Below are positions 141-33,900 of a stretch of DNA of 64,000 nt, one piece after another (position 1 is the first letter of the stretch; each line of letters starts with the position of its first letter). A model generated the notes under the pieces. The model was not told the DNA's origin and did no database searches. It saw only the letters and a program-made list of their open reading frames with translations. The position numbers and the translations under genes are program-made. The DNA is from Lophium mytilinum (taxonomy: Eukaryota), in assembly GCA_010093605.1 (NCBI GenBank), contig MU004199.1, positions 186,001 through 250,000 on the forward strand, given 5' to 3'.

Positions 141-478
141 GTACTGTCTGAAGTCCTCTGACAAGTTCCGAGGAATTGGGTGAAAGGTGAATCGGTGGTA
201 TCTGTGTATGTAGGTTTACCACCGTCTGAAGTCCCTCGATGCATTTTTGAGAAACAGGACGACATGCGAACTGCCTACATCTATGTACATAGGGTCGCCA
301 CTGCATGAGGTACTCCACCACGCCATGAAAAGCCTGCTAAGAAAATGCTGAACGGCATGTGTGTACACCGCTTCGCCACTGCCTGAAGTGCTCCACCATG
401 CCTCCAAAAATCTGAGGAAAAAGGATCTCAGCGGTACATGTGTACCTCGCTCACCACCGCACGAAGTCCTTCAACCCC
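141..478. repeat. Degenerate tandem array, 5 units, 78-79 bp period, ~35-bp conserved core with variable spacers
   Basis: Core YGARG anchors at 149, 227, 306, 384 and 462. Cores: gtactgtctgaagtcc / ccaccgtctgaagtcc / ccactgcatgaggtac / ccactgcctgaagtgc / ccaccgcacgaagtcc; the last four are preceded by tgtgtat/tatgtac/tgtgtac. Confidence 0.8.
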
Positions 479-515
479 CCTTCCAAAAAGCAGCCAAAAC
501 AAATCCCCTTCTCCA

Positions 516-3147
516 CTAAAGCAACAACAAATCCCCACCCCCATCCCCCCCCATCTGACCCATCCCACCCATGCCACCCATCCCGTTCGCTCCCCCAGGA
601 CTCTGCACAATCCCCTGCGGCGCATTCTGCGTCACGACATACATACTCGCGCTATTCCCCGCAATCGGAGAACCCCCAAACGCGCTCTCGCGCATCTGCC
701 CCGCGTTCAGATTCGCGAAATACATATCCGCCTCACTAACCGCGGCAGCGAGATTCCCGTTCTGCGGCACGCTGGCCCCATTCCCATTCCCATTCCCATT
801 GCCGTTCCCGTTGCCGTTGATACTCGACAACGCCGCCGTATCCACAACCGGCCTCTCAGCGGCCGCTTTCTCGCGCGCCGCCTTGGCCGCGCGCACGGTG
901 GGGAGCGTGTGGCGCTGCAGCGCGGGGCTCTCGACGAGCTTGCGGGGGCGGGCGGAGCGGAAGACCTGGTTGACGGGCTTCAGGTAGACGGTGGCGAGGG
1001 TGCCGACGCTGAGGCACATTTCCTCGAGGGTGGCGGGGTCGAGCTTCTCGCTCTCCTCGGCCGTGATGGCGGGCTTGTCGCCCATGACGACGCGCTTGGC
1101 GATTTCCGGGGACGAGGAGAGCAGCCGCCAGTACATGTAGCCGCGGTCGCGGAGGTCCGGGTTGTCGGTTTCCTCGGTGGCCCATTTCAGCACTTTGGGG
1201 ACGAGCTCTTGGCCCTTTGTGGGGCGTTGGATGAAGAGTTTTACGGTCGCGGTGAGGAGGGCGAGTTGCACTTCGTGGGGCTCGTCGGCGAAGCTGTAGA
1301 GGAAGTCGTCGAGGAGTACGTCGGAGTTGTCGATGCGGTCGGCGTATTGGCCGATGACCCAGATCATGGCGGCTTTGGCTTCGGGCTCGTCGAGTGAGTC
1401 GAGGTTTTCGCAGAGCGTGCTGATGATGGACTCGTATTGGTTGGGGTACTTGCGGAAGATGTTGCGGATCACTACGGTGGCTTCTTGCACGATGTAGGAG
1501 ACTTTGGTGGCGACGAGCTCGAGCAACGTGTTAATGCAGAGGCGGGCGGCGGGCTCGATTTTGATGGCGAGTTTGCCGATGGCGCGCACGGATTTGCGGA
1601 CGAAGTCGACGTCGATTTCCGTGGCGTATCTGGAGATGGGTTAGACGTGATGGATAAAGGGGGCTAAAAACAACGTACTCTCGTAATTCTGTTAATACTT
1701 CTTTGATGTTACGTTCCGTGGCAAGCATGAAGATGAGTTCCAGCTTCGTCACCTTGACGTAAATCGGGTCGTTGTATTTGCAGAAGAAAACGCGGATGTC
1801 GTTTCGTAGCACCTCCGGCCTCCGTTGTAAAATGAGAAGAGCGTTTCGGAGGGCGAGGTATTGGATTTCGGGTCCTTTTGATAGAAGTGTGACGAGCGGT
1901 GGGGAGAGCTTATTACACAAAGATGCTATTACTTTCTGGTCGGATATGTAGTTCATGAGGTAGAGGATAACGCGAATGCAGGTTAGTACGACAGCGGAAT
2001 TTGAATGCGAAAGTCGAGGGGAGATGCGCTCAGCGAGAAGCGCTGCTTCACTAGTGTCTTGTGGGACGTAGTTCATCATGGCCTCTAAAATGTATGTTTG
2101 GCCCCATCTAGTCGGTGTTAGTAATGATACATCCCTGCAATTGGTCTGCTTACTCTGAGCAGTCAGGCAGAATCTGGACAATCTTCGAGGCACTCGCATA
2201 GTCTATAGTGAGTTTGATGCTCTCGCTCCGTTCCCAAATATCCATTAGACCTGCTAGTGCGCTCGAAACCACTGTTGGATTCTCGTCCCTCAGCATAGTG
2301 TTCAGCCGATCAATAAGATCGGAGGATTCCACTAGATGTTTATCGTGGTCGTACAGCTTCGCAACGCAGAAAGCAGCTGTTTTTCGAACGTAGGGATCTG
2401 AGTCTTTCAGGAGTCGTTTCAGGGGAGGAACGGTCGCTTCCACAAATTCCCGAACGTGGATATACGACATCGTACGTAAGGCAAGGGCCCGCACTAGGGG
2501 GTTATTGTCGTCCATATCCTATGCGACCAGTCAGCATATGAATCCCTAGCTGGCGAGCACGGCGCATACATTGACGATGATAGGCAGTGCCTTCAGTGCA
2601 ACGTCCGGTTTTATCCGAGCGTAGTTGACCAGGTATAGGAAGCACCTAAGTTCCAATCAGTTCCCGGCCCACTATGACTTCCCATAACATCGCATCGCAG
2701 CAACTAACATCTTCTTGATTTCCAGGCTCGAAATGTGCATGCAAGCTACGATATCTGGGAACAGGGCCACCATATCGTTATTGCTCATTGTCATATTCGC
2801 GACAATCTTCTTCAGCGCCGTCTTCTTCGCGGAGAAATTCTTGTCCTTCTTGCCGCCGCTGTTGAGTTCGAGACGTAGCTCCGCTACTTTGCCCTGTGGA
2901 GAACGGAGGTATTGTAAGCGCGCTGTGTTTTCGAATGCAAAGGTAGGAATGAACATGGTGACATCGCTCGACTATGGGAAACCATAGCACGGATGCGCCG
3001 TCGATTCGAGCTTGCGAAAGCGTGCAGTATCATAGACTGCAGCTGTAGAAATCGGAATGTGGTGATAATGTGTGGTAATGTTGACAAAGAAGCGCAACAT
3101 GGACGTACTCTCGCAAAGAGCTTCGCATCTTGGCCGCCTGCACTCAT
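516..3147 (-). CDS. APL1: AP-2 adaptor complex subunit beta (beta-adaptin), multi-exon
   Basis: [32 protein letters not shown]..., [34 protein letters not shown] introns (intron 1 is 3108-2894). Lacks a C-terminal ear domain, as is typical of fungal AP-2 beta. Confidence 0.93.
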
Positions 3148-4161: not shown

Positions 4162-4835
4162 ATATACCACATTCAGTGCTTCCGACAATGAGATTTATAT
4201 CATGTCACTGGAGCCGCCTATTTTCAAGCACGTGGATGGGCCGAAGACTCGACTAATGCGCCTAAGAACCATGTAACGGCGGAAGCCAAGCTTCAGGTCG
4301 CACATCGCCTCTCTCGCCTACATCCCGCATTTTCCTTCAGTTTGCTAACCACCACCAAACCTCCCAGCTTCTGTCCATTCGCCTTCCGCCATCCATTCAA
4401 GTCGACATGAGTATCCGTGAACTGCCCGCGGAGGTATTTCAGCAGCTTCTCCAATCTTGGAAATATGTTCAGAGTACATGAGAGCAGACACCGGGTCTGA
4501 TCACATCTTAACTGCTTCACGTTAGATTGTGCGCGCAGTTCTCTTTCAGATCATATTGATTTCTAATACAGTCCAAATGAACCAAATTGGGTTTCCGTGA
4601 GAGCCAGGTTCCGGCGCAATGGGCCTTCATATTCTTCTATAAAAGCACTCGCCCTGCTCTCAATAGCCTCTACAATCACTCCACTTCTCCATGAGAACTG
4701 TACCTCCAAGACCCCTTTGCATTGGATAGAACACCTTCAGCTCTCCTTGCTTTAGACTTTCATACCTACGAAGTGTCTTCTCATACATTCAATTCTATAT
4801 CTCTCCGGCTATCAGAACTCTTCAGGCCGCTCAAA

Positions 4836-5941
4836 ATGTCCTCTCAATCCGCGATTGCCGTGACAGAGGTTGGCAAACCTGTGACTAGGATCACTTTACC
4901 CAAGCCCGAAGAATCAGAGCTCGCAGAGCACGAGCTACTTCTCAAAGTATCCGTTGCAGGGCGTAAGCGCATCATCTCCTCCAGTCTCCTCATGCACATC
5001 CCTCTATAAAAACCCTACCAGTCGCTCCGCTCGACGCAAAGATGCGAGACCGAAACCCCTTCAGCCTTCCCCTCCCCATCGTCCTCACAGGCGATATCGT
5101 AGGCAAAGTGATCCAGACCGGGACCGACGTACAGTTCCCCATCTCCAACCACGTCTTCGTGCAGCAAGTCATGCAGCGTCCAAACCGGGGCGGTCTCCAA
5201 GAACACACCATCGTTGACGGCCGCTATGCCGCTCTCGTCCCCGAAGGCATCCCCGACGCGGAAGCCGCTCTGTACCCAATCAATGCAGTCACATCTGCGA
5301 AGAGTCTTTTCACGCCGGAGGGGTTCGATTTCCCGTTCCCTGGCACGGCAGAGGCTGCCGGCTTCGACTTTGCGGCGCAGCATGTTGTGGTCCTTGGCGG
5401 TGGTACGAATTGCGGCAAGTTGGCGGTTCAGTTCGCGAGGCTCGCTGGTGTTGGGAGGGTTGTCGCGGTCGCTTCGGCGGCTGGGGGGCCTTTGCTGCGG
5501 AGTCTTGGAGCGACGCTTGTTGTTGATCGGCGGAGTGCTGGCGTTAAGGAGCAAGTCTACGCAGCGGTCGAAGGCGAAGTGCTCAATGTGTATGACACCT
5601 ACGGAAGCCTCGATTTGGGCGTGTCGCTTCTTTCAGAGAAGCGGAAGGGGACGCTGGTGCATACTACTCACGGGAAAGTCTCCGAGGAAGTTATTTCGCA
5701 GAAGAAAGCCAAGTTTGACCAAAAGTTCGTGAAGGGATTCTCGGATTCGATTCCTCTATTTGGTCAACGATTCTGGAAACAGTTCCCGGTCTGGTTGAAG
5801 ACTGGGGACATCAAGCCTCTGGACTACATTGTCATTGAAGGCATGGATGTCGACAAGATCAATGAGGTTCTGGATTTGTACCGAGATGGCAAAGGTGGAG
5901 ACCGCTATCACGTGAGGTTGTCGTCATTACACGGAATGTAG
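4836..5941 (+). CDS. Zinc-type alcohol dehydrogenase-like / enoyl-reductase (MDR family)
   Basis: Exon 1 MSSQSAIAV...LLKVSVAG, intron ~4963-5021, then APLDAKMRD...GDIVGKV and the Rossmann-like VVVLGGGTNCGKLAVQFARLAG. Confidence 0.85.
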
Positions 5942-7775
5942 AAGTTCCCGTTTATATAGCATTCCCACCCAGATCAACATGTAGCCGTCGGCGACGGTTT
6001 CGTTGGGGAATTCTTGGGGAGTCTACGCGAGATATTTTAGTACTTGCACGGTTTTTGCTCTGTTGTGTGGAAACAGACCTTTAGTAACAATTGAGCTTGC
6101 CCTATTCCCATCTGATCAGCAATCCACACCAATGCCTCCCTCATAATACGACGCTGCTGCACCTTGGTGATTGAGAGGCCGGATACTTTGAACAGAGGTT
6201 GCATGAGCAGTAGTCCTCCCAGAGACTTTCCTGGTGTCAAGCGAAACGGAGCACCACTTTCTGCGTTTTGCACCATGTTCGGTACATCGGCACAGAGATG
6301 GAAGCATAGAGAGGCCGCTATGTCATCTACCAGGTCTTGTGCTGTGGAGATTTGAGGCTGGAGGAAGTTTCGCAAGTTCAGCTTGGAGGCACAGTCGATA
6401 ATGGCGTCGATGATCATAAGGCGAACCTTGCGATACGTATTCCAAATCGTGGAGATGTATACTAAGTTGTCGGTAGTGCGTCGACTATACATAGGAAGAG
6501 TACTCACGATCGGCGTAGACATCAACACGCCCGAAGAGCCAAAAATGATTCTCTTTGAAATCCGTCATTAGCGGATCAAATTTGCCAATCGTTCTGTATT
6601 GCCACCTGTGTAGCTGTGTTGTCGCCCAATTTGCTAACTCGTTGTCTAAGTTACTTGCTGTCTGCATGATGGTGTGAAGCTCCTCTGCGATTGCCACCTT
6701 GGCTGAAAGTAGCGTCCGTACTTTTCGAAGAATGGTGAAAGATCTTGAAAATAGTAAGTCCAGACTTTGGAGTGGATGCGCTAAAGGTTGGTTCAAGCAG
6801 TCTTCAGTCTAGAATATTTATAAGTAGAGCTGTATAGGTTCGAAAGGCGGATGATCATACGTAGAGAATAGACTCAAATGCATTGCGAAAGCAACCAGCC
6901 CAGGTTAAGGTAAACAAAGACGCTCCTGCTGTAGACAGCATGGCATATACATCCCGAGAGTGTGTACCATGATTGGAACCATGTTCTTCTGTCGCCGAAA
7001 TCATCTGCTGCAGCATGAATATGAGTCGAAATAACACACAGAGTTGACAAACCTCGTATATGCCCAAGAGCACTACGACCAGCAATGACTCTGGTGTACC
7101 AGAAATGCCTCCATGCGCAAGCCGGGTTTGTAATGACTCCAGGAATTGGGTGTCTAGCACTCTTGCTTTGTTCACAAGAGATGGCCTCCTTGACTTGTCG
7201 CCCATACTGGCCAATGCGGTGATGTTGGCTGCTTTAGCAAGATCAGAAGAAGGATCTGCAGCGACTATGATTAGTTTAAAATCATCCAGAATGCTTCCCA
7301 CGAGGTCCGATGACGGCGAGGCAAGACAGTAGTCATCAAGAAGGTGACTAAAGCTCGATCCTCAAGTACAGAGTCCATTTCGATATAATGAACGTCATTC
7401 CTCAGGGCGGGACGGTACGGTCGAGTGGCTGTTAAGTTGCCGTATGGCTTGAACTGAGTTTCCGAAGATTCTGGGTAGCCCAAGCAAATACGATGCGCTC
7501 GTACGCATCTTTGGCAAGACTAGGAAGAAATGGTCATTATAAAAGGGCCTCACGGTGAAAGCGAGAGGCCGTGGTTTCAGATCAGAATCGACTGTAAGTT
7601 GCCGTTCTCATGACCGCATTCCAGAATAGCAGGATGTAGGACGGAAACATACGGGACGATTTTCATCACACTGTAAACCATAGTTAGCCCATACTTGGAG
7701 TTACAACGAGATGAATACCTTTTTCCGCCGCTTTTTGCATGTTCTGCAAGCGCTCGAGGCTCCATGATTTACCAT
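5927..7775 (-). pseudogene. Zn(II)2Cys6 transcription factor, frameshifted
   Basis: Spliced N-terminus MVNHGASSACRTCKKRRKK|CDENRP|SCQRCVRAHRICLGYP. Frameshift at ~7340 (TTC TT GAT GAC TAC TGT, expected F-x-D-D-Y-C). Fungal TF C-terminus GGLLLMQPL...WIADQMGIGQAQLL. Confidence 0.75.
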
Positions 7776-19921: not shown

Positions 19922-21099
19922 CCTGAGAAGAGCGGGCTAGGAAAACAGATTCACGCTGGAGGTGTTACTGCGCGCAAGTTGATCCGCAGACGAAAGAGGA
20001 AGAAGTGTGGGCAAGTTGAAGAAGGGCTCTGGCAGGTTCACTCAGCTTGCCCCACCTGAGCGAGGCATTTTAAGATAAGAGCCCGCCCAGAGACCCTATG
20101 AGCTGTCCCTGCATGCAACATGCAAGGCTGAACAATTCCTCTCGCCCCGTTGGTGGATTCGCGAGGCTGAAATCAGAGTTCCAGTTAGTAGACTACTGAT
20201 TGGCTGCACAAAGGGTAGAGTCTGACTGGAACACTCTCTCAAGGCGTACTTGGTTGCCCTGAGTTCAGCTGGGAAGATCTCTAGTGATGCATCCTGCGTT
20301 GGAGGATTTGAGGTTGGAGGTGTATCACGTGATCAAGTCGCAGCTTCAGATTTCCATCGTTCAGAAACTCGGGTAGAATACATAGTACACCTTCTTGCCA
20401 CTGTTGGAAAAACCTCGATATACTCCACTTGGTTCGAATGCGAAACCACCATTTCCAGGAAATGGTTTGCACTCATCGGGCCTCAAACGGTAGCAACTCA
20501 TATGTCCATTCGCAAAGGATGCAACGCAAACGGGAGGGTATCTACATACATCCATTTTACATTTATCAAGACACACCAGTCTACGGAGGAATAGTCTGCA
20601 CAGATCCATACTGAGGCACTGTATCTTACCTGAGTAGGACATCCGTTTGTAGAAGCAGCACTTTTATGCTACTATAGAGAGCTGCCGTGTGAGGTAGCCT
20701 AGCGAGGATCAGGTTTGTCGACTTGAAAGCCCTTCACCGCATGAAATAAGCCTTAGCTGAGAGACACGTCATTCACATCACATACGTGGCTTGATGGGAA
20801 GGCTGGCTTTAGCAAAGCCACCACTATCATCGAGAAGTTCCGGTGATTGAAGATTCCTGCATGGGAAAATTCTTGGCGCAGTATCATCCTGGGAACCGGC
20901 GCTTCCCCTCCTCAGCCTTGACATCCTCTCACTTTCAATCTACAAGCTGTTTGTTCATGATCAGAATTAGCAGCGTGACATCGATTTATCGTCATTACGT
21001 CGGCCTGAAAAGCCTTATCCAGGAGCATCTGGTATATATCGCCTTCCTCGTATTATCCTAGGCCTCGCAGCTGCTCTGCCAATATTGTCAACTTTCCCG

Positions 21100-22914
21100 A
21101 TGTCGAACCCGTTTCTAGATACGCCAGCGCCGCCTCCAGAGCCCTTGGATCCTGGTCGAGTATGGGACGAATGTTTCCCGTCCCGACACCTAGAGTTCAG
21201 CGAGACACGGCAAATTCCGTTCGAAGAAGGCCGTGTTTTGGGTCGGGGTGGCGTTGGTATCGTACACAAAACTACTTTGCACGGAGTTGACTTGGCTTGG
21301 AAACGAACCTACACGAGAGTCATTGGCGAGAGGCAGCTTAACGAGATGAAGATTCTGCGCCAGATGCGGCGCGAAAAGGATCGGCATATCGTTGAACTTG
21401 TGGGATCATACGTTCGTCGTGGCAAGGCTGGAAGCGTCCACGAACTCGGCTTGCTGATTTGGCCCGTGGCCTATTGTGACCTCGGAACACTTCTTTCGGA
21501 AATGGATCAAATGAACGCCCGATTTCCCGGTCTCCGTCCTCCGGAAAATAATCCAGAATACATGGCGAGTGCCAGATTTCTGGAAGGTATATTGAGAAAA
21601 AGACCGCCTTACGAACATAATCCATATTACGGCGCCCTCAAGACGTTGAGTCAAGCTGTCGGCTGCATTGCTCATGCTCTCTAATTCCTTCACTACAATG
21701 GAATAAGGCACCGAGATCTGAAACCTGATCAAATTCTCATCTCGCGTGATGGGCTCTGGGTGACTGACTTTGGGTGGTCTAAAGACATTTCCAATTTGAG
21801 CAATAGTTTTTCTGCGAATGGAGAAGTCATGACGAGGAAATACATGGCCCCTGAAAGAGCTTTAAGGCAACCTACAGGCCGATCCGAAGACATATTTGCC
21901 CTCGGATGCACGTATCTACAGATGGCGTATGTGCTTACCGGACGCCCTCTACAACAGCTAGAGGACTTCCGTGTTGGCGATGACCGCTCTTTCCAAGCGA
22001 ATCTGAAAGATCTAGGCAAATGGGTAGCTCCGTTGAGGTTAGATTCGTCGAAGTTCTCGGCTTTAATCTTCTTGATCGAGCAGACTCTCATCAAAGAACC
22101 GGGTCACCGACCGAGCGCGAGAGAAGTTGTTGCTGTTCTAGAAGCCTGCAACAACGTACGGCCACCTAGAGGGTATCATGGATTTTTCGGTGATTGCTGT
22201 TACGATGCCTCGGCACCTAATAGAGGCTCCAAAATTCTGCTGGAAGTCCTGGATAGGGCTATAGACCGTGACAATAGCTTGCACACCAGGGACAATGTTT
22301 GGGGGGTACTGCATCAACAGTACGAACATTCATGTGCAGAAGTCAAGACGCTCCAGAAGGATCGAAAGATTGAAGATTTGGCCACTCAAATGCAAGGTCT
22401 CGGAAGCAAATTTCACCAGCAGAAAGAAAACTTTCAAGAGTTGCTAAGGATTCTACATGGAAACGAAATTTCGCAGAGTGAGGCAAATGGCCTGGAGCCA
22501 TACACAGAGAAGTCAAGAGAAAACGGCCTCGCCGGCTTGAGAAAGCTTATTTTAGTCAAGTTGAAAACGCTGGAGTCAACCTTCCGCGAAGAGTTCAGCA
22601 AAGTAAAAGAGGACCACGTGAACGAAAAAAAATGGCATCATGCAGAAATAGCCGATATTGAAGAGTATAATGAGGAGGAGAGAATGGTCACTCGGAAAAG
22701 ACACGAGCGCGAGCTTGAATCCCTGCATAAGCAGATTTCAAATCAGCAAAGAACTCAAAGTTCAACGACAGACCTTATGAAACAAAAGTTCGATGCCGAA
22801 ATACGACAACTAAAGCAGGTCCACATGGCCGAGATTGAGCAACTGCGCCAAGAAATATCAAGCAATAGGAGGCTCAAAGGGTCGCAACAATCGGCAGAAG
22901 CGAGTCCGGACTGA
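21100..22914 (+). pseudogene. Ser/Thr protein kinase with coiled-coil C-terminus, interrupted by one in-frame TAA (21682-21684)
   Basis: LGRGGVGIV, LAWK, HRDLKPDQIL, TDFG, YMAPE and DIFALGC all lie in one frame across the stop. Confidence 0.85.
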
Positions 22915-24030
22915 TACTTTCGAAACGGATTCTCTAGGCTCTGGAGAGAAAGGATCTCGGCGCCATAAACCGAAATGCAACGATAATAGCACCGGCTCCG
23001 GCAAAGCACAAGAATCTCCACTGCCTTCAAGATCATGTTACAGCCACATCCTCTAGGAGAGTCAAGTGATGAAGCCGAATAGACACCGAGTCCGCCGGAG
23101 GCAACGACACAAATTGCCGATCTCCCTTTCACCGTCGAGTTCGAAGCAGTGGAAGCTTACCAACGGAGACTTCAGCTCCGGCAAGAAACAAGAACCGAAA
23201 CATACCAGTCCTCCTACTCCTCTTCAACCTCTACTTTTTTATCTGGACTTTTGATACCTCTCGACCAATGCACGGCGGCCTCTAGCAAATCACACGGTTT
23301 TGGGGGTTAGTATTGTCGTGTCACTCTTCACATAGAGACCTCGAGATCTTCGTCGAATGCTGCATATTCGGCGATATCGGAAGACCTCCGCCATGTCAAG
23401 GGAGTGCCTAAACTCTACCCATGCTGCCAAAAAGCTGCACTGAAAGTCCGATCTTAGGGTTTTGCACACCATGCCACCCCTCGCCAACACCAAGGGACCG
23501 TTAGAGGACGATGGAATTTAGCGATGATGTCACGCATACTACGTTTCGAATCTCATTTTCTCTTGCTAATGGTTTTCTCGCGATGGTTGGATACTAGAGC
23601 ACACCCAACGGCCCGAAGAGGAATGCATGAAGAATGTCATTTTCTGGAGACGTTCATTTTAGGACAGCTCGTTCCGTTTTTGTTCGGCATTGCGAAGGCC
23701 CTTTCATCACACGCTCGGAGGCTAGGACGCAGTGGTGAATTTTTAAAATGCGTATCGAGTGGCGGTTTCCAACACGCCTGGAATTCCTCCAGGGCACCAG
23801 GAGGCATTAAGACCGATCGCGGATTATACACATGTTAATTCAGGGTTTGATTAGTGAATAGGATACCTAAAGTTCGCTAGGGTCTTTGCAGAGACACCGA
23901 AGACCAATATGAGCTCAGACCTTGACGCTACCAGAGATTGCGTGGGGAGACGGGAAGGAGAGTGCGATGTGAGAAATAGTTTTGGAATAGGTTCTGTCAT
24001 AATAGGACGGGTACAGTGACAGGGCGGGAC

Positions 24031-24177
24031 TTTGTGCACACTCGTTTGCCACTGCCAGGAGTGCCCCCATGGGGTGGACTACAACGTAGATATTATGTCA
24101 AGCTTCAGAAAGCGTGATCTGAGCTTCCTCATGACTAGACGGGGCCGCCCCTGGCAGTGACATCCAGTTTGCAAAAA
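24031..24177. repeat. MITE-like inverted pair of the ~35-bp motif
   Basis: Forward tttgtgcacactcgtttgccactgccaggagtgcccc at 24031; reverse ggggccgcccctggcagtgacatccagtttgcaaaa at 24141. Confidence 0.65.
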
Positions 24178-24983
24178 CGACACCCAAGGAGTGATATTCG
24201 TGTGCTCAGATGGATGGCCTAGTATTGTATTTGTAGATCATAGAATAGCTTGTGAATGCCCGAATGTTACTACTTGGGGCAGCTCAGCGTATCGCCAGGG
24301 AATCGGATATGATGCTGGACCGAAGTTCACAGAGCAAGAATGAAAGATGAGATGGCTGATCATGATTCGTTTACCTAACCAAGTGCCCCAACTTATTCCC
24401 AAGGGCCCTGACATAATCCAAACTTACTCTACCTGACCTCCAAGAAGCTCTTCACGAAGCTTTGTGGTACTTGGTCGAAAATCGTATCCTGCTCGCGAAA
24501 CTGCGAGGCGCGCTAAACTCCGTCCGTTTGCCAAGCTCTATATCATCCACAGCTTTACAGAAACCTCCCCCTCGGTATTCCTTATGCTGCTCAATCTCAT
24601 AGCATAATCTGATGGCACTATCTTCTAGTGACCGTATAAAGTACGAGTCGTCGTAAGCGCGAGTGCAGGCATGACAGGTCTCCGGACTGAAGAAGTATTA
24701 GCGTACGCAATAGACGCTCGTTGTTGTAAGAGGTTGGAATGGCTTACAGATTTGTGCCAGCCGCGATGTACGCGAAGGCCAGTAGGAACACGTTCATGAT
24801 CATGACGAAGTTGTACGTCCACTGTGCCCACTCCATCTCGCCGCTGGCAATGGCGCTCCTGGCGATGAGAAGAGTAGCTAAGATCCCGGCTGGTACGGTG
24901 CTGACCATGATGTAATTTTCCACAAACCAGGCGATGGTGACCTGCTTGCGGACCTAGGAGAGTTATTAGTCGCGTCTTAAGAT

Positions 24984-25618
24984 TCAAGGTAGAACAAATC
25001 TTACATCTTCTGACTCAAGAGCTCCGAACTTGGAGTCAAGATTAAACGGAAGTGTATGGAAAGAGTTGAGGATGATCCACATGTACGAGATGAAGAAGCC
25101 AAGCGCAAAATACAAGCATACGGCGAATCGCTCCTCATTCAAAGCTGCGGCTTCCGACCCCTCATATAAGCCTGCACATAAACGTCGACATAAGTAGAGG
25201 GCCTCCCACAATGCGAGCATGATAGCGCCATAAGTGCACACTGCCCGACGCCCTTTACTGCAGTACTCTACTAACATATAGATTCCGATTAACAGGAGGC
25301 ATGTACCGGAGAGTAGATACATCTGGCGTAACGCGTAATTAATGCACCCGGCTTCCGACTGTCCCGCTTCCGCGATTTGACAGTAATCTTCTGGCGTCCA
25401 GAGATTGTAATTGGGTCGGCCTAGAAGTCGGAAGAAAGCGGCGTCGACGGGAAGTATGGGCAGGAATACCAGAAAGGCCAAGCGAGCGCGGATGACCAAG
25501 TCTATGGGCGTTCTAGGTAGTTTTTCTAGGTCTTGAACTCCATCCTTGGAGTCTTCGAGTCCTTTCTTGGGGTCTAGAAAACCCTTTTCGGGTCGGTAAT
25601 GTGCTTCTCGTCTTCCAT
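24984..25618 (-). pseudogene. Small multi-TM membrane protein, paralog of 34097-34666, with an N-terminal frameshift
   Basis: ATG 25618 reads MEDEKHITDP, then a 1-nt slip at ~25590 into EKGFLDPKKGLEDSKDGVQDLEKL...; hydrophobic helices; visible similarity to the 34097 ORF. Confidence 0.6.
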
Positions 25619-26239
25619 CTGAAGTGTTTGGAATTAGGGGCGTGGATGATGGGATTGGCGATTTTCAGTGTTAGAATGAAGAGGAAACTTTGAAAAGAAA
25701 GAGACGTGGCCGCTTTATGTACGCTTGGTACCGCATTTTCATTACCCACGGTACAGCGTGGAAATCATACCAACGTAAATCAAGACTTACCAAGGGAACT
25801 ACCGCACCTCATACTTGACAAGGTTACTTCGGAGAATACCAGATATCGGTAGTCTGTGTATAGCATTCACAGATCTCGTCTTGATCGATCTTCTGGTTTC
25901 TTGCTAGTATTTCGTTCGCTGCGCTTTTCAAATGAGCAGTCATCGATCTTCATCTTAAGACATGCTTGGCATTTCAGTAGGCCAATTGAGTATGTCGGCG
26001 GAGCCATTACTACATTCTGCGTTACAGAATACCATCATCACGACGATTTTGAAGGAAGGAACGAAAGTCGTCCCAACCCCAAATCCCACCCCCGGACCGG
26101 AAAAACCCATCGGCCAAATTTCTCATCTGCCCCACTACCCCTCCAACGCCATCCCAACTTCTTCACTTTCCGAAGTACCTAACTTTTTCATCACAACTCC
26201 TCCTAACTTCCACACAACACTCCTTACCCCAATCCCAAA

Positions 26240-27067
26240 ATGTCCAACCCCCCCACAACCCCCCTCCCCGCCCACAAACTCACCTTCCTCCAATCCTGCC
26301 TCAGCGCCAACGCCCTAAAATTCGGCACCTTCACCCTAAAATCCGGCCGCACATCCCCCTACTTCTTCAACGCCGGCCTCTTCCACGAGGGGCACCTACT
26401 GCGCTCAATCTCGACCGCTTTCGCCGAAACAATCCACAACTCCCCCCTCTGCCGAGCCACAGGTGAGGCAGCGGCTGGACTCCTGGTCCAGAGTAGAGTC
26501 CCGGTCCAGAGTGTCCTCCCAGGGGAGGTGGGCTTCGACATCCTCTTCGGCCCCGCCTACAAAGGCATCCCGCTCGCCGCCACCACTCTCCTCAAACTCT
26601 GCGACCGCTCCGAAGCCCGCTACGGCGCGCTGTCCTACTCCTTCAACCGCAAAGAAGCGAAAGACCACGGCGAGGGGGGCAACATTGTCGGCGCGCCTTT
26701 GAAAAACAAACGCGTCGTGATCATCGATGATGTTATCACCGCGGGGACGGCGATTCGCGAGGCGATTGAGATAATCAAGGTGCAGGGGGGGAAGTTGGTG
26801 GGGATTGTGGTGGCGTTTGATCGGATGGAGAGGGTGGGGGATGGGGAGGCGCAGCGGGGGAGTGCGATTGGGGAGGTAAGGAGGCAGTGTGAGTGAACGA
26901 TGAGGCGAGGGTTTTGTAAGGATTGCGGCTAATTGTGGACAGATGGCGTGCCGGTGCTGAGTATCTTGAGTTTGGACGATGTGGTGGAGTTTCTCAGGGG
27001 GTTGGGGGGCGAGGAGGATTTGAGGCGGTTGCAGGAATATAGAGAACGATACCAAGCGAGGGATTGA
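26240..27067 (+). CDS. URA5: Orotate phosphoribosyltransferase
   Basis: [56 protein letters not shown]; intron ~26889-26942. Confidence 0.96.
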
Positions 27068-27419
27068 GGGGGCGATGGTAAGCGAGGGATCGAGAGATGG
27101 CTATATGCGTGTTTTTTGGAGTTCGGACGGTCAAGGTAATGGGGGGCATAGATGTTGTAGAACAACATTCTCCAACGAGAGTAGGGCATAGTGATGGGGT
27201 TTGTATACCAAAAAGCGCTTTTGATTTTGGCTGTGCTTATCAAGCAAGCAGTGTTACTATTTTTGTAGGAATCCCAGCGCTGTCTGTTCAGACGCCTTCC
27301 ACGCTCCCGCTCCAATGCAAGATCAAAATCAAAAACTTCGCCCACCATATCTTACAACATCCCCTCTCAAAATCCCGCTCCATACACCCAGGCCTAGGTT
27401 ATGAAGACGCTCATAGAAC

Positions 27420-29045
27420 CTAAACATGATTATCCGGTGCCGTATGCGTCTTTTCCCTCTCCTCCTCCCCCTCCTCCGTCTCACTCTGGCTCAACCTTGG
27501 CTGCTGCATACTCCTCCTAACCGCCATATCCGCCCTCGTCTTCGTCATCAACGCCTCCCTAATCTCCTGCTTGCTCCGCTGCGCCCACGCCTCATACCCC
27601 TTCATGCTCAGCGGAAACAGCACCAAATTCTCCGCCTTCGCGATCCACTCACTACTCTCCGGCTTCGGCGCGCTAGTAATGATATCAATATCCGCGGCGA
27701 GCTCCTCGCAGTACGCGTCGAGCGGGAGGTCGTTGACGTCCATGCCGAAGGGGTTCTCGATCTCGCGGCCGATGGCGGCTATGCCGAGGATGATGTAGGC
27801 GGCGAAGATGGTGCCGGGGATCGTTACCCAGCGCAGCGCGTCCCAAAGTTGGAAGGGCAACATCATGACGTAGACCCAGGTGATTTGTGAGATGGCGATG
27901 GAGTAGGCGACGGGGAGGGGGGTGTGCAGGACGCGCTCGGTGCCGATGAGGACTTCGTTGAGGGCGACGACGGAGTTGACTGGGGGTGTTAGTGGAGGTT
28001 TGAGGGAATGGGGAGGGGAGGGGAGGGGAGGGAGGGGAATGCATACCGGCTTGCGTTTGGTAGATTGGCACGGAGAGGTTACCGTTTGCGATGAGGCCGT
28101 CGATGTAGGAGGAGAGATAGGTAATGATTTCGACAGGGAGGTTGCCGAGCGGCTTCTTGCTCCTCTTGATGAGTTTTCGCGGGTTGGACTCTGCGAACGA
28201 GACGCCAAGGTACTCGCCCACGCTCTTCCAAGGGGACTTCTTGCCTGGCTTCTCGAGGTGGGGTTGGGCGACTTTGGCGAAGGTGTCGAGGTATTCTACG
28301 AGGCCGTGCAGGTCGTCGTATTCAATGCCGGGTTCGAAACGGAGCTTGTGCTTCATGGCGTTGGCGAAAGCATTGATTAGGTTGAGGGCAGTCCTGCATT
28401 ACTTGTCAGTTTTCCACGGTTCGGTGTTCGTAGGGGATGGTTCCAGGTATGCTCACAGCTTGGCGAGCAAATCCTCCTTGCCCACATCGCCATCACGCTC
28501 CTTGCTATGGATCCAAACTGTGCGTGCCAGATTCTGCCCCACGAATGTCAATTGGCCCCAGAACTTCCGGCCCTCAGCGTAGCGTTCGTAGGCGGTGGAA
28601 GTCCGGAAGCTGATAGCCATACCGACGACGAAACCAAGGACCGTGAGCAGCAGGCTTGACACCTTGAGTGGGAAGATGAACTGGGAGATGCAAGTGATGA
28701 GGGTGGACCATAAGGAGACAATGATGACCGGGAGTATCATTTTAGGGAGGACGGAGCCGTGCATTCGCATGAAGAAGGGCCATTTGCTATGCTTGTTCAT
28801 GTCGCGTGGCCCAATCTGCTACTGCATTAGAAACACTACTCCCACGTCCCAATTAAAGTCAAGGGAGTTCGAATGCTTACGAAGTAGTCGTCGAGGTCCA
28901 CGCTCCCACCGGTCATCCTCCGCGTCTGCATCCGCAGTGGCTGCTGCCATGATACAGGCGAGAGCGGGCCTCTATTGGCAGAATTCGTACTGGCTCTAGT
29001 GTCTTGAATCTCAACCTGCTTGGGCTTGGGACGCTTGTCGGCCAT
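27420..29045 (-). CDS. UPF0187 / bestrophin-family (YneE-like) channel protein, multi-exon
   Basis: ISFRTSTAYERYAEGRKFWG, ERVLHTPLPVAYSI, IGREIENPFGMDVNDLPLD. Confidence 0.9.
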
Positions 29046-29890
29046 TCTGGCGAATCAGAAAGATGAAGGATGAGGTTTTAGAAAGAAACTGCCCAGCAGC
29101 TTGCGATTGTGAAAACGAAGAAGTAGTAGAGATTATGAGAGAGTAGCTGGGGTTAGTATTTCAAGTAAAACGAAAAGAGTGAAGATGGCAAGCGGAAGAG
29201 TCCAGAACCATTGATGGAGCGGTGGGAGGGTCTTATGAAGGAAAGATTTTCGGCCCCAGACACTCGTGCTCGTGGTGGATCAAGTGGTGCGTGTCACGAC
29301 TGCAGTCATCAGCATGCCTGTCAGAGAAGCACAGCAGGGGTCCCTCTGTGAGCCTCTCTCCGCCTTGGGGCCTTGGGGGCGTCTCCCCCTGAATCGTCGG
29401 CCAATGGCACGGGTTGTGGGTGGTGAAGGGGCTCTCGTGCAAGGGGCGTGTCGCGGGTTTGCGTTTCAAAACATCACGCTCCGGAAGCTTGGCGTCGCTA
29501 ATGGTGCGGCCCGCAAGTTACCCCCGGGCGCCAAATCCGCCCCCTTTGCCATGCATGTGAGATGCACATTTGCTGAATGCGGCGCCTGCTGCAGAAGACC
29601 GTTGGGGGGGCCATATGTAGGTAACCATAACCATTGGATGTCTATATATGCGCCTACTTGCATACTTTATAGCGCAGTTGGAGTGTCACAGTTTCTATTC
29701 GAGAGCCTAGTTGCTGTTACACATTGCAAAGGCCGGTAAGCACGCGCTATCCCGATGGAGAGAGTGACATTTTTGGACACGACCTGTCATCAAACCCTGC
29801 GTGCAGGACCCACTCGGCATCCGGCAGCCAGCGCAGTGACATCCATCGGGATCCCGTCCACGAAGTCAATTGACTTGCCCAGAGCATCCT

Positions 29891-30784
29891 TCACCTTCCT
29901 CGCAATGCAATTCGCCTCCTCTCGTCCTGACCTCGCTTGAGCTCCAGCTGCAGTTCTCGCGTCCTCCACGTCTCACCGTCCATGCAGACCCTCACCCGCC
30001 CGATGCGTTCGATCAGGAGCCAGTGTGCTGCCGCTACTTCGTGTCTAGGCGCCCAGATGTAGTTCCACACCGCATTGAGCTCCCTGAGTACCGCCTTGGG
30101 ATGCACAAGACCGTCTTCGATCTGTGAAGCGTCCATGTCCTCTGGAAGAAAGCCATCCCGGGGGACCTCTGATGGCGTGACTACATTGAGGACCAACTCG
30201 TCCACCATGAACGTCCTCGACGACTTCTTGTCAGAGGAGAAGTCCGGCCCATACTCAATGATGCGTTTCAATGCTGCACAGATCCCCCATGCAATGCGTC
30301 CTGGCGGTTTCCCAATGATCCATGGGGAGGCCCATTTGCGCTTCCGGTTTCCAGTCAATCGCACGTCTACTTGGAGGTGATGGAGATGGGTGTATGTAGT
30401 CGGTTTCCAGAATCGCGGCCGTTCGACGTGTGTTCTCACCAGCGGAAATGAGAGCCACGTCACGTAGATATTTCGCTCGTCCTCAACCAGACAGTCTAGT
30501 TTGAGTGGCATCTCCCGCCGCGACTTTGCTCGAGTGATTACGTGCCCCATCTCTTCGCGCATTTGGTGGTTGCATCGCAGGAAAGTCGAGCAGGTGTCCG
30601 GCACCCCGTCAAGCGTGTATGAGTTGCCAACTTCTCCAGGCTGCTCCGAATGCGTCGTGACTTCGTGGACTTTCCACATCTGCAGCCGGTCATCGGAGAC
30701 GGACGGCCGCGGGAGTTCGTTGGTGAGGGCGGCGTAATATATCATGTCCCGCAGCTCGCGGGGAAGCTCTAGAAAAGCCGCCAT
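29891..30784 (-). CDS. Hypothetical protein with an N-terminal F-box-like motif
   Basis: MAAFLELPRELRDMIYYAAL; uninterrupted ORF of ~297 aa. Confidence 0.75.
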   Translation of the reverse strand: MAAFLELPRELRDMIYYAALTNELPRPSVSDDRLQMWKVHEVTTHSEQPGEVGNSYTLDGVPDTCSTFLRCNHQMREEMGHVITRAKSRREMPLKLDCLVEDERNIYVTWLSFPLVRTHVERPRFWKPTTYTHLHHLQVDVRLTGNRKRKWASPWIIGKPPGRIAWGICAALKRIIEYGPDFSSDKKSSRTFMVDELVLNVVTPSEVPRDGFLPEDMDASQIEDGLVHPKAVLRELNAVWNYIWAPRHEVAAAHWLLIERIGRVRVCMDGETWRTRELQLELKRGQDERRRIALRGR

Positions 30785-31294
30785 GGAGATGGTGTAACCA
30801 GAATGAGGTTCAGGCCCATTAATGTGAAGGTGAATGTGATACAATTCGGGTGGAGCAGGACTGCATTTGCATTGAGAGAAAGAATGCCCTCAAGTGTCGG
30901 ACTGTTGCATCGAGTCTTTCCGAGGTCTGGTCATCCTACGGCGCGCCACATATTCGCTAACCACATTTAGTCGCCCGTAGCTATCATCTCGCATCTATCA
31001 TCTCTCTCAGCCTTGGGAGTCTTCAGACAACATTCCCAGCCATCACTCTCAATCCTACTCGTCTCGAGCTTATACGTCCTTCAAGTTGCTCATCATGCTT
31101 TGAGGTTCCCCAAGCAGTGCTCCAAACCACCAAGCCAGTGCTTACCAACCGAACTCCCACTGAGCACCCTCGCGGGGAGACGTACAGATTGATCTATATG
31201 CACCCAAGATGCCGACAAAGAGCCCAAGTAACCTAGACAGTGAGCGATAGGAGCCCTGCCAACCAAAGCTTGACAGCTCTTACATCTCATTCGG

Positions 31295-31365
31295 ATCTCG
31301 GATAATACATCAGGGTACTCCAAAAGTCACCAGGCTGGTGTAAACACACCTGTTCCCAGGTACTG
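31295..31365. repeat. Reverse copy of the dispersed motif upstream of the HET gene
   Basis: tcggataat...gggtactccaaaagtcaccaggctggtgtaaaca; shares gggtactccaa...ggtgt with the copy at 18105. Confidence 0.5.
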
Positions 31366-31600
31366 TAGAACTACAGTAATAGGATACAAGTTTGGGGAGG
31401 CTGTCATTTTCATCTTGTACCGTATTATGATCAAGTGCTAGGGACCACAAACAACGGCAAGTCTGCTTATGGTCAGCTTGTGGAAATCCTCTAATTCACG
31501 CTCCTAGGGAATCAACGTTGAATCAAAACTCTTTGAATGATTGAGACACCCCTAACGGTCGTGGACAAGGGTGCCCAGGCTTGTGTCGAAGCACTGTACC

Positions 31601-33697
31601 ATGTCTGTGTTCTCGAGGATACGCCAATCCTGGCAGGCTCGCCGTACCGATTATCCAGAGCTGCCTATCCCTGCTCAGTCCACTGACGAAGCCTGTCCTG
31701 ATTGTTGGGAAATTCTGCACGGTCTGTTACACGCGGTTAACTCTAAGCTCGCCCTAAGAAACGTTGCACACTTCTTAGAACGAAGAGATTGCCCATTATG
31801 CCATGTTATTTTGAGTATATATCCGGGATTAACCCATGAGCGGCGTAAATCGACACTTGCATGTGAATTTTCCGGTTTCACACAGGATGGATGGGTGATA
31901 ATAGTATATGTCAACGGTGGAGAAAGGGGACGCATCCGCGTCTTCCATCCGGAAAATCAATCGAGGTTCTTTCTACGCCCGGAATTCATGGCTGATACTG
32001 CGAATTCACTGGACAGGGCTCTTCTGCCCTGGACTAGGGTCTCTTTTGGGTCTCTTATGTCTTGGAAACGAAAATCTTTGAGCCCTGATTCTAGATATTC
32101 AAGTTCCAGGGTAACACCATCTCCGAAACCCACCCGTTCATTCAGAAAGGTTTCTTCGAACTTTATGAACAGGTTCCAGGATCAAATTTCCATTCCTCTT
32201 GTTCGTGGCTGGCTACACGACTGCGAAGCTCATCATCATAGTACCTGTTCTCGGGCTGTTCTGACCGAACGTCAGGGTAACCCCGTGGACATACTCCTCA
32301 TAAACGTCAAAGGCCAGCGTCTCGTATGGACAACTTCCTCCACGAGATATGTCGCTTTAAGTTACGTGTGGGGCCGCATTGACAGCTTTCAGACGACCAA
32401 ATCTACCTTAAAAAGTCTTGAAGATCCTGGAGGGCTTCTCCTACACTCTCTTCCTCCGGTAGTTCAAGACGCACTGGCATTTGTTAAAGTGATGGGCGAA
32501 ACCTATTTATGGATCGACCAGCTCTGTATTGTGCAAGATGACGCAGATTTGAAGCATCGGGACATTCATCAAATGGATATGATATATAGTCACGCTTGCT
32601 GGACTATTGTTGTCCTATCTGGGGAAAGTGCAGACGCGTACATTCCAGGAATTCGTCCGGGATCTCGCGTCAAATGGCAATCAACGACATCCGTACCTCT
32701 GGACAAGGCATTGGAGAATTCGCCTTTGGAACAACGTGCGTGGACGATGCAAGAAAGGATGCTCTCCCAGCGCTGCGTTTATTTCACGAACCAGCAGGTG
32801 TATTTCCAATGTCTGAACGGCGTCAAATCCGAAGTCCCAGCTGGGATAGGCCAGGAGAACCTCAATGGTACTACCTTGGTGTCAAATCCCCTCGTCTCAG
32901 CACGTCTGCACCAGTACGACGAAAGTTGGAGCTGGAAGTTCGATATCTATAGGGACCTGGTTCAGAAATACTCCCGGCGCCAACTATCGTTTCCTTCGGA
33001 CATCTTGAATGCTTTCTATGGAATTACTAAAGCATTGCAAAAATGCGGTTCCGGGGACTTCGTTAGCGGCATACCAAGAAGCGCATTGAATGTGGCCCTC
33101 TTGTGGGTTCCAGCAGCGCCGCTAGAGAGGCGATATATAAATGGGCGTCATCTGCCTAGTTGGAGCTGGGCAGCGTGGATCGGAGCGGTCGAATGGCCGT
33201 CCAATATCCCTAGAAGTGTGGCTGTTCACTGTGTAACGGCTAGATGCACCTTGCCCTTCCCCGAACTTCCGATGGAATCTGAAGACGCTATTCGCATCCT
33301 TGCGCGAAGAACCAAGGACTTTGACATCCGCCGATCCGGTCTAGTACCCTCGCAGTATGTGGTGTATACTAAGCAAGGCATACGCTGTGGTTGGGTATGT
33401 GGAAAGGATCCTCATGTTTTTGATCATGAGAATACGGCACAGGTCGAATACGTACGGCTATCGTCTCTCTTACTGGAAGACTTGAACTATGAGTCGGCTA
33501 CGTCTATGTTCGATAGCGCGCACTACGAAATCACACCGCGTTGTATCTTCAATGTGATGATCGTCCGCTGGGTAAACGAGGATTTCAAGAATGCGGAGAG
33601 AGTAGCGATCTGCCAGATACACAAAGATGCTTGGAAAGAATTCATTAGAGACCATACGGGAATTGAGCGTCCCGAAGAATGGATCAACCTTTTCTAA
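31601..33697 (+). CDS. Heterokaryon-incompatibility (HET domain) protein
   Basis: YVALSYVWG, YLWIDQLCIVQDD, MDMIYSHA, RAWTMQER, YSRRQLSFPSD, PSWSWAAW; intronless ORF. Confidence 0.92.
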   Translation: MSVFSRIRQSWQARRTDYPELPIPAQSTDEACPDCWEILHGLLHAVNSKLALRNVAHFLERRDCPLCHVILSIYPGLTHERRKSTLACEFSGFTQDGWVIIVYVNGGERGRIRVFHPENQSRFFLRPEFMADTANSLDRALLPWTRVSFGSLMSWKRKSLSPDSRYSSSRVTPSPKPTRSFRKVSSNFMNRFQDQISIPLVRGWLHDCEAHHHSTCSRAVLTERQGNPVDILLINVKGQRLVWTTSSTRYVALSYVWGRIDSFQTTKSTLKSLEDPGGLLLHSLPPVVQDALAFVKVMGETYLWIDQLCIVQDDADLKHRDIHQMDMIYSHACWTIVVLSGESADAYIPGIRPGSRVKWQSTTSVPLDKALENSPLEQRAWTMQERMLSQRCVYFTNQQVYFQCLNGVKSEVPAGIGQENLNGTTLVSNPLVSARLHQYDESWSWKFDIYRDLVQKYSRRQLSFPSDILNAFYGITKALQKCGSGDFVSGIPRSALNVALLWVPAAPLERRYINGRHLPSWSWAAWIGAVEWPSNIPRSVAVHCVTARCTLPFPELPMESEDAIRILARRTKDFDIRRSGLVPSQYVVYTKQGIRCGWVCGKDPHVFDHENTAQVEYVRLSSLLLEDLNYESATSMFDSAHYEITPRCIFNVMIVRWVNEDFKNAERVAICQIHKDAWKEFIRDHTGIERPEEWINLF

Positions 33698-33734
33698 CAC
33701 CCCCAACCTGGATCCAGACTAGGGCTATAGCCGG

Positions 33735-33900
33735 CACTTGTAGCTGTCTGAAGTGGCCCGAGGAGATGTTAAGGTATTCAAAGAAACACATCCACGGGGC
33801 ACGTCGAGATTCGGATAATCTTATGAAGCATCCCCAGCACTGGCAGAGAAGTGTGCATAGACTAGTCACCAGACCCCGCAGAGATGCCAAGCTACCTAGG
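33735..33900. repeat. Motif copies downstream of the HET gene
   Basis: Partial forward ctgtctgaagtg at ~33744; tcggataat at 33811; reverse cagcactggcagagaagtgtgcatagact, whose gtgtgcatagact is identical to 18130. Confidence 0.55.

Follow-up and report, generated by a model that had tools for sequence, protein, structure and literature searches.

The short motif copies that recur in a 64,000-nucleotide stretch of DNA from Lophium mytilinum (the window) very probably belong to a decayed MITE family of this Dothideomycete, one that was probably mobilised by a Tc1/mariner-type enzyme. The family is an ordinary kind of repeat, scattered between the genes of a wood-dwelling fungus, and not a system for recombining gene cassettes. 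The original prediction had left a choice between an old small TIR element (MITE-like) family and a REP/attC-like family that shuffles cassettes. The first of these is upheld by inverted repeats of ~55–60 nt bounding non-coding elements of 127–181 bp, by TA at five of the eight termini placed by eye, and by dispersed copies.

The ~35-nt motif family itself is real. In cross-locus tests that scored only matches that were not profile seeds, with 40 dinucleotide shuffles as the control, matches reached 16–20 bits against a best of 8.7 in the shuffles. A profile seeded solely from the array at 200–480 (the array-only profile) matched 18349–18374 at 16.8 bits, 24032–24067 at 16.2 bits and 18180–18213 at 10.4 bits, whereas the best shuffle scored 8.7 bits with this profile and none of the 40 reached 12. 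A profile seeded solely from the four copies near 18 kb (the 18-kb profile) matched 24032 at 20.5 bits, 360–395 at 18.1 bits and 282–317 at 15.6 bits, with further matches at 33859–33824 (12.4 bits, E 0.011) and 20385 (11.1 bits). A de novo repeat search recovered the family independently as group D2, comprising five copies of 35 nt (203, 282, 360, 18179 and 24033), and groups D6, D8, D12, I3 and I6 of the same search also derive from it.

The individual copies fared unequally. All four that were expected at 18103–18473 were found, at 18104–18139 (minus strand), 18179–18214 (plus), 18342–18374 (plus) and 18435–18472 (minus). For the pair proposed at 24031–24177, the left copy stands (16.2 and 20.5 bits with the two profiles); the right copy, 24140–24177, was missed by a 10-seed profile even at E ≤ 100 and is backed instead by a 10-nt exact inverted match and by a genomic contig aligned over 24137–24205. 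In the pair proposed at ~33744–33862, the right arm is the match scored above with the 18-kb profile, and the left arm at 33744 was missed by the 10-seed profile at E ≤ 100. The copy suggested near 31313 is weaker than suggested, being missed by the same profile at E ≤ 100 and scoring 4.1 bits with the 18-kb profile, which alone is not significant. A fuzzy search with the 20-nt core gave 10 matches at up to five substitutions, two of which (19774 and 27013) are not members of the family according to the profiles. The copies are indeed intergenic: no significant copy overlaps a Pfam-positive ORF, and the weak match at 20385–20416 sits in an ORF without a Pfam match. Copies are 45–77% alike, with decayed arms and deletions.

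A terminal inverted repeat of ~55–60 nt contains the 35-nt motif as its inner half; its outer half reaches a CAGTG-type terminus (CTCAG-type in one subfamily), often abutting TA. Inverted pairs of these repeats make up elements A, B, C, D and E. The head-to-head pairs of 130–150 bp described in the original prediction thus exist, but the true elements extend ~17–20 nt further on each side. The features in the window are:

125–505, plus strand: decayed tandem array, five units with a 78–79-bp period
18031–18157, no strand assigned: element A, 127 bp; CAGTG starts the left repeat (18031) and CACTG closes the right (18157), followed by TA at 18158–18159
18170–18319, no strand assigned: element B, ~150 bp; TA at 18168–18169 before the left repeat; right repeat decayed, with a putative end
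18320–18490, no strand assigned: element C, 171 bp; CTCAG at both termini, TA at 18491–18492 after; best-preserved hairpin
20385–20416, plus strand: weak, isolated copy of the motif within the kinase block
24014–24194, no strand assigned: element D, ~181 bp; TA at 24012–24013 before the left CAGTGAC, TA at 24195–24196 after the putative right end
24206–24290, plus strand: possible decayed relic adjoining D; full-repeat profile match at 24244–24286 (8.7 bits, E 0.15), alone not significant
31238–31365, no strand assigned: possible element F, decayed, lying upstream of the HET ORF; right end GGTACTG, then TA at 31366–31367
33708–33877, no strand assigned: element E, ~170 bp, starting ~11 bp past the HET ORF stop; right arm clear, left arm decayed, internal deletion

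Elements A, C, D and E have the structure expected of MITEs, that is, terminal inverted repeats around a non-coding interior under ~800 bp, the elements being 127–181 bp in total; no Pfam-supported ORF overlaps any of these four. In A-right, D-left and A-left, the copies stay similar on the outer side of the motif as far as a shared CAGTG end, past which the similarity stops. CAGTG or CAGT ends are present at A-left, A-right, D-left and the right end of possible F; the ends read CTCAG in C and CTGG in E. TA lies directly outside five of the eight putative termini, which were placed by eye on diverged copies, and on both sides in D only; the other three lack it. Given a TA frequency of 0.039, this corresponds to P ~5e-6 for eye-placed termini, or 7e-4 if three positions are allowed per end. 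A search for longer target duplications of single elements (2–10 bp, ends shifted by up to 3 nt) gave nothing convincing, with neither a clean 8-bp duplication as for hAT nor a longer one pointing to another superfamily. Whole-element pairwise similarity lies mostly inside the shuffle range and is clearly above it only for A–D, C–D and C–E, and the elements fold into hairpins not significantly better than shuffles, C being a weak exception (z = −2.13). A hairpin within the single terminal repeat was rejected as a general feature (11 single repeats, z −1.5 to +1.3); A-right, A-left and array unit 203 do fold in this way.

As a seed, the right arm of element A reaches 25.8 bits, and the array-only profile gives it 8.4; a genomic contig aligned to A spans 18043–18159, stopping exactly at the terminus plus TA. 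At 10.4 bits with the array-only profile, the left arm of B (18179–18214) exceeds the best shuffle (8.7); B has no significant self-inverted match and folds no better than shuffles (z +1.44). The arms of C, 18347–18363 and 18446–18462, are 94% complementary, and repeat group I6 comprises 28 nt at 82%. In D, a 10-nt exact inverted match joins 24050–24059 to 24150–24159, and the right end is uncertain by ~11 nt because one contig aligns out to 24205. The right arm of E scores 25.3 bits as a seed. The solo copy at 20385–20416 scores 12.7 bits (E 0.0078) as a non-seed match, and 11.1 and 6.0 bits with locus-specific profiles. Possible element F and the right arm of A have an 11-mer in common, at matching positions within the repeat, and F has a TA|CAGT end at the distance where one is expected; its pairwise scores against A and E lie within the shuffle range, its surroundings show a slight excess of depth in the bin 31009–31675, and there is a weak joint 18413/31210. 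A matched pair of E and F flanking the HET gene was considered and rejected, its score of 20 being one that shuffles also reach (mean 16.8, maximum 24).

The family is both multicopy and dispersed, with dozens of further copies in contigs of the same organism. Two runs of DNA contigs, X1 and X2, possibly come from the very organism that supplied the window, so that contig counts represent copies within one genome, not across strains. Element C matches 20–21 other contigs at 80% or more in X1 and X2, and in X1 four contigs match A and one to four match D. Word depth over element C sums to 4583–5970 in these runs, compared with 155 for a single-copy contig, amounting to 30–38 copy-equivalents, and 66 of the 102 records in X1 are less than 90% alike. 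Contigs matching element C diverge past the element ends, leaving dispersed copies with unrelated flanks, as expected of a MITE. The loose ends before 18347 have a common ...GTGTGTACAC and then disagree (agreement 0.59); those of four other D copies retain TACAGTGACAG and disagree further upstream. Subfamilies have the repeats in common and differ in their interiors, four D-type copies agreeing at 0.91 after 24074. Contigs of both X1 and X2 carry an opposite-strand joint, 18474/24229, involving the relic beside D. Changes among the X1 copies comprise 28 transitions and 29 transversions and hence show no excess like that from repeat-induced point mutation (RIP). No empty-site allele was seen among X1 and X2, which are possibly the source itself, and X3, which shows no differences over the pieces it covers; X3 is an RNA-like run, a label that is a guess backed solely by spliced joints, and its contig depth cannot rank expression. 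A scan of metagenome contigs with the 23-nt degenerate core of element C gave 0 matches.

The tandem array at the left edge of the window has motif matches at 143–158 (weak, only 6–8 bits), 202–239, 281–317, 359–395 and 438–474, with spacings of 79 and 78 (78 in repeat group D6) between units that are 45–63% alike. Each unit resembles the left-end 78 nt of an element, made up of the outer end, the 35-nt motif and ~20 nt of interior, and the last unit continues into sequence resembling the interior of element C. TRF did not report the array (125–505) at a minimum score of 40, and Rfam gave no match on 1–520 at E ≤ 1. The array lies just downstream of the stop of a minus-strand adaptin ORF (ORF end at 516), Adaptin_N being matched in the minus-strand ORFs 516–1640 and 1531–2202. 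Tandem arrays derived from MITEs (minisatellites) are reported in plants and animals. As in those, one element end plus some interior is repeated head to tail here, five times at a fixed 78–79 bp, but this array is small and strongly decayed, is seen at a single locus and may be cut by the left edge of the window.

What genes do the copies adjoin? The HET ORF occupies 31556–33697. The proposed block of GTPase and kinase pseudogenes holds for the kinase (Pkinase, 1.4e-21), the ORF of which is split by one in-frame stop at 21682–21684; the GTPase label comes only from matches at E 0.03–0.1. The closest non-self relatives are 46% identical for the HET protein and 57% for the kinase, and NOG1 is 99% identical to the protein of Lophium mytilinum and 89% identical to that of Glonium stellatum. 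G+C content in the HET and kinase blocks is 0.47–0.52, below that of neighbouring core genes. As foreseen, no recombinase or transposase is visible in the window, Pfam giving no such match among the sets of 29, 22 and 33 ORFs tested. A Starship-type element was also considered and rejected for the window, with no captain tyrosine recombinase (DUF3435) among the ORFs of the window, although such an element could exceed 64 kb. Rfam at gathering thresholds finds U6 only in the whole window, and no tRNA was found there, making a tRNA-derived SINE unlikely. None of 15 ORFs (46–76 aa) in the AT-rich block at 50.5–60 kb has a Pfam match; short elements persist in DNA of normal G+C while the large repeats became this AT-rich block.

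The position of copies next to the HET gene and kinase block might suggest that MITE pairs acted as breakpoints or composite ends, through which ectopic recombination or a transposase inserted or shuffled these genes. The elements do flank the 18.5–24.0 kb block, with A–C to its left and D to its right, the HET ORF is followed directly by E and has possible F upstream, both enclosed genes are fast-evolving or lineage-specific when their identities are set against that of NOG1, and the blocks are lower in G+C than the core genes next to them. We nevertheless regard such gene movement as unlikely: no convincing target duplication marks A..D, C..D or F..E, the putative cassettes, at their outer ends, F is statistically unsupported, C and D come from different subfamilies, and copies are present where nothing is bracketed, as with the array by the adaptin gene and the three elements stacked on one side. 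Of the ~26 intergenic intervals that the first 50 kb contain, the argument concerns only four or five loci, and the genes were labelled accessory post hoc. Most likely, copies adjoin the HET gene and kinase block because weakly constrained intergenic DNA tolerates insertions. Capture of gene cassettes by a site-specific recombinase at attC-like or REP-like sites is highly improbable. Integron attC sites and REP/BIME elements belong to bacteria, with IntI or RAYT as their enzymes. The copies here resemble them as short, imperfect palindromes recurring between genes, at gene borders; in A-right, the motif core reappears in reverse complement as the terminal 11 nt. The host is a eukaryote, however, a fungus in which no recombinase, integrase, IntI, RAYT or Y1 transposase was found among the tested ORFs of the window; single repeats fold no better than shuffles, and TA-flanked, transposon-type ends, with copies dispersed genome-wide and diverging past those ends, fit transposition. 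The cassette-shuffling half of the original prediction is not supported, there being no recombinase among the tested window ORFs, copies that bound no accessory gene, and cassette ends that lack a convincing duplication.

Could the repeats instead be kept by function, as a promoter or UTR module or a small-RNA hairpin precursor? Spliced, RNA-like X3 contigs cover A–C (17814–18963) and E (31507–34634), 15 X3 contigs carry family copies, and element C matches a miRNA model on both strands. This match, to Rfam mir-49 over 18345–18464, scores 28.4 and 21.8 bits on the two strands against a gathering threshold of 60, and is all that Rfam gives for 18000–18520 at E ≤ 1; being sub-threshold and on both strands, it points to a generic hairpin. 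The array has no Rfam match, the fold z-scores are weak, and likeness of 45–77% with decayed arms and deletions is unlike the outcome of purifying selection; moreover, a contig is no proof of a single transcript, and calling X3 RNA is itself a guess. A selected cis element is therefore very unlikely. Chance similarity among G+C-rich intergenic sequences would account for the copy at ~31313, the first array unit (143–158) and the left arm at 33744, all of which are at chance level, but it is refuted for the core copies by the cross-locus scores and the dozens of further copies, and its overall probability is negligible.

We therefore return to the decayed MITE family. A DDE transposase recognising the terminal repeats would have moved its elements in trans by cut and paste; because of the TA flanks and CAGT ends, this enzyme most likely belonged to the Tc1/mariner group, and it may be encoded elsewhere or already have been lost. 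Insertions would have survived in intergenic and UTR DNA near gene ends. RIP has a length limit, and the elements may have escaped it because they are short, the large repeats at 50.5–60 kb having been turned AT-rich by RIP, to judge from their composition. Three elements would have piled up side by side at 18.03–18.49 kb, and one left end may later have been amplified by local tandem duplication into the 78–79-bp array. The copies today are probably passive fossils, some of them in stretches that RNA-like contigs cover.

The mimp family in Fusarium is derived from impala, and Stowaway-like elements are likewise Tc1/mariner-derived MITEs. No DNA transposon superfamily is more widespread in fungi than Tc1/mariner (PMC5751038). 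The mimp 3′ repeat has the consensus TT[TA]TTGCNNCCCACTG and ends in CCCACTG, followed by a required TA target, and mimps are noted there for adjoining a particular class of accessory genes (PMC3599309). The elements described here are similar: short, non-coding, intergenic and near genes, with TIRs that in several copies end ...CACTG beside TA. In contrast with mimps, their repeats are about twice as long (~55–60 nt) and centred on GTGCAC/GTGTACAC, CTCAG forms the ends of one subfamily, the family has no linked transposase, impala-like or otherwise, and the host is a Dothideomycete, not Fusarium. Identity with mimps was rejected, the window having no exact match to the consensus and six at up to three mismatches, compared with 7.85 expected; one of the six is the A-right end, 18142–18157, with three mismatches. 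Searches of the full-text literature and of passages in PMC12910237 gave no description of a MITE in Lophium mytilinum, and the family is apparently undescribed, a provisional judgement made against the literature, with Repbase and Dfam outside the comparison.

It is improbable that insertion or retention of the family favoured sites next to allorecognition-type genes (HET, kinase/NLR-like) of this saprobic Dothideomycete, with repeat pairs acting as breakpoints that placed such genes between core genes. If it were so, the association would parallel that of mimps with effectors in Fusarium, for non-self-recognition genes; and were the family enriched genome-wide near HET, NLR and kinase genes, it could be used to locate fast-evolving recognition genes, as mimps can in Fusarium. 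As matters stand, the finding is a point of repeat annotation, and the family is worth masking and annotating in this genome. In the gene-rich part of the window, it is the only recognisable dispersed repeat.

The 35-nt motif belongs to a real repeat family. An unguided repeat search of the window returned five copies of this length (at 203, 282, 360, 18179 and 24033), together with the inverted pairs I3 and I6, and motif profiles trained at one locus recovered others with scores beyond the shuffle maximum. The 14 candidate copies were aligned and profiles built on subsets. The profile from four units of the tandem array alone (200-480) scored 16.8 bits at 18349-18374, 16.2 at 24032-24067 and 10.4 at 18180-18213, against a top score of 8.7 bits in 40 dinucleotide-preserving shuffles. 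A second profile, restricted to the four 18.1-18.5 kb copies, scored 20.5 bits at 24032, 18.1 at 360-395 and 15.6 at 282-317, with matches at 33859-33824 (12.4 bits) and 20385 (11.1 bits). The original observation was largely correct. Some of its copies are weaker: that at ~31313 reached 4.1 bits with the 18.1-18.5 kb profile, the first array unit is a weak match, and a 10-seed profile missed two copies even at E<=100, the right one at 24140 and the left one at 33744. Profile searches found zero copies between 34 and 64 kb.

When copies were anchored at the motif core and compared outward, similarity extended ~17-20 nt past the motif and then ended. The motif is therefore the inner half of a ~55-60-nt terminal inverted repeat, and the following putative elements can be delimited:

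18031-18157, element A
18170-18319, element B, right arm decayed
18320-18490, element C, with CTCAG termini
24014-24194, element D, right end uncertain
24206-24290, possible relic
31238-31365, possible element F
33708-33877, element E

Elements A, B and C are adjacent, with gaps of 12 bp (A-B) and 0 bp (B-C). The right end of A and the left end of D are alike, each having TA, then CAGTG(G/A)CA..., a GTGCAC-type centre and the motif. TA lies immediately outside five of the eight inferred termini (A-right, B-left, C-right, D-left, D-right); given a window TA frequency of 0.039 this has P ~5e-6, or 7e-4 allowing three positions per end, a test that is partly post hoc since the termini were set by eye. 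No target duplication longer than TA fits the element ends. The right end of D is uncertain because the alignment of one contig extends to 24205, 11 nt beyond it. At the right end of A (18103-18157) the terminal 11 nt, CAGTGGCAAGC, are reverse-complementary to the motif core, with the GTGCAC-type centre between them, so that this repeat could fold on itself; the end of A is in itself a small palindrome. Self-folding of single repeats is inconsistent among the copies (z-scores -1.5 to +1.3).

Three sequencing runs of the same organism were compared with window 15001-35000 at 80% likeness. The two DNA contig sets carry this whole stretch without differences; they may represent the source DNA itself, and their copy counts hold within this genome only. 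In these sets 20-21 other contigs align to element C, whose summed word depth is 4583-5970 compared with 155 for a single-copy contig (~30-38 copy equivalents). Four other contigs align to A, and the match of one contig to A covers 18043-18159, ending at the terminus plus TA; D is matched by one contig and four loose-end records. In the first DNA set 66 of 102 records are less than 90% alike. The loose ends before 18347 have ...GTGTGTACAC in common, after which agreement falls (0.59). Four D-type copies retain TACAGTGACAG before 24033 but are unlike the window farther upstream; past 24074, in the interior, their mutual agreement is 0.91. This pattern marks a dispersed element whose ends are defined and which has several subfamilies. 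In the first set, a single contig joins C-interior-like sequence to DNA just upstream of F (18413/31210; shorter side 21 nt), which hints weakly at a copy in another place that combines C-like and F-like halves. The third set is RNA-like, as judged from its spliced joints (CT..AC, GT..AG). Fifteen of its contigs hold family copies, and contigs span 17814-18963 (A-C) and 31507-34634 (the HET ORF and E), although contigs cannot prove single transcripts.

We conclude that this is most probably a decayed MITE family, one of the two alternatives originally proposed. The inverted repeats, short non-coding interior, dispersal, TA flanks and CAGT-type ends together point to elements that a Tc1/mariner-type transposase would have mobilised; this superfamily is the most widespread among fungal DNA transposons (PMC5751038). 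The other alternative, recombination sites of the attC or REP type, finds no support: the host is eukaryotic, the ends are transposon-type, and neither a recombinase nor a transposase occurs among the 84 ORF translations tested, in agreement with what had been noted for the window. Nor is a selected role as an RNA or regulatory element likely: the copies are in visible decay, element C matches Rfam below threshold and on both strands (28.4 bits vs 60), and the array has no Rfam match. Among named fungal families, mimp of Fusarium comes closest; its 3' repeat consensus ends in CCCACTG followed by a required TA (PMC3599309). The mimp consensus has no exact match in the window, and six at <=3 mismatches compared with 7.85 expected; the family thus behaves as mimps and Stowaway-type elements do, yet is not a mimp. 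The literature searched, PMC12910237 included, describes no MITE for Lophium mytilinum, and on repeats that paper states solely a bimodal age distribution; with Repbase and Dfam outside the comparison, the family is provisionally undescribed.

The array at 125-505, just downstream of the adaptin ORF stop, comprises five units with a period of 78-79 bp and mutual likeness of 45-63%, and was unlisted by TRF at score 40. Each unit corresponds to the left-end ~78 nt of an element, and the final unit continues into C-interior-like sequence. So regular a period speaks for one element end having been duplicated locally in tandem, not for five insertions.

Do the elements bound or move accessory-gene cassettes between core genes? 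By its ORF matches the window is fungal, and among its genes are:

516-2202, minus strand, Adaptin_N ORFs
11861-13330, minus strand, NOG1
16742-17566, minus strand, Tim17-family protein
21685-22911, protein kinase
31556-33697, plus strand, HET domain

Other ORFs match alcohol dehydrogenase, a TRI12/MFS pump, phosphoribosyltransferase, bestrophin, short-chain dehydrogenase and a GH47 glycosidase. The NOG1 exon shares 99% identity with a Lophium mytilinum protein, Glonium stellatum being the next named relative (89%). Elements do lie to the left and right of the 18.5-24 kb block, E directly follows the HET ORF, and a doubtful copy precedes it. The enclosed genes also look lineage-specific, with nearest non-self relatives at 46% (HET) and 57% (kinase) identity. 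Against this, the loci number four or five out of ~26 intergenic intervals, and 'accessory' was a label given once the pattern had been seen. One of these loci, the array, has only a core gene beside it; no duplication is present at the outer ends of the putative cassettes; E and F cannot be shown to be a pair; and C and D are of different subfamilies. On the simpler view, survival of short elements is favoured in long, weakly constrained intergenic DNA, which is also home to fast-evolving genes.

The HET protein is a near-orphan, its best non-self relative covering 65% of its length and others reaching <=38%. For the block labelled 'GTPase + kinase pseudogene', the kinase is borne out; the GTPase (19276-19662, minus) has weak P-loop matches only (MMR_HSR1, Septin, Dynamin_N and AIG1, E 0.03-0.1). 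The kinase lies in a single frame, 20971-22911 (plus), with one stop at 21682-21684. Its public protein model, 361 aa long, begins at residue 49 of the second ORF; the closest relatives (57% and 56% identity) have 477-489 aa, with ~176-182 residues ahead of the aligned part. It follows that the gene is either a pseudogene or one with an unrecognised intron.

Finally, stretches at 21293-21368 (76 bp) and 27850-27964 (115 bp) match other contigs of the organism at ~86-87%, and by motif profiles are unrelated to the MITE family; the second is internal to the bestrophin gene and adjoins a skip joint of 76 bp (27773/27850) present in all three sets. G+C drops to 0.25-0.28 across a 10-kb block at 50500-60300, with normal G+C either side. 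The block is packed with short AT-rich tandem repeats, 15 ORFs from it (46-76 aa) have no Pfam match, and it looks like a large repeat ruined by repeat-induced point mutation. A full-length U6 spliceosomal RNA gene lies at 63288-63387 (plus strand; 71.4 bits, E 4e-16).
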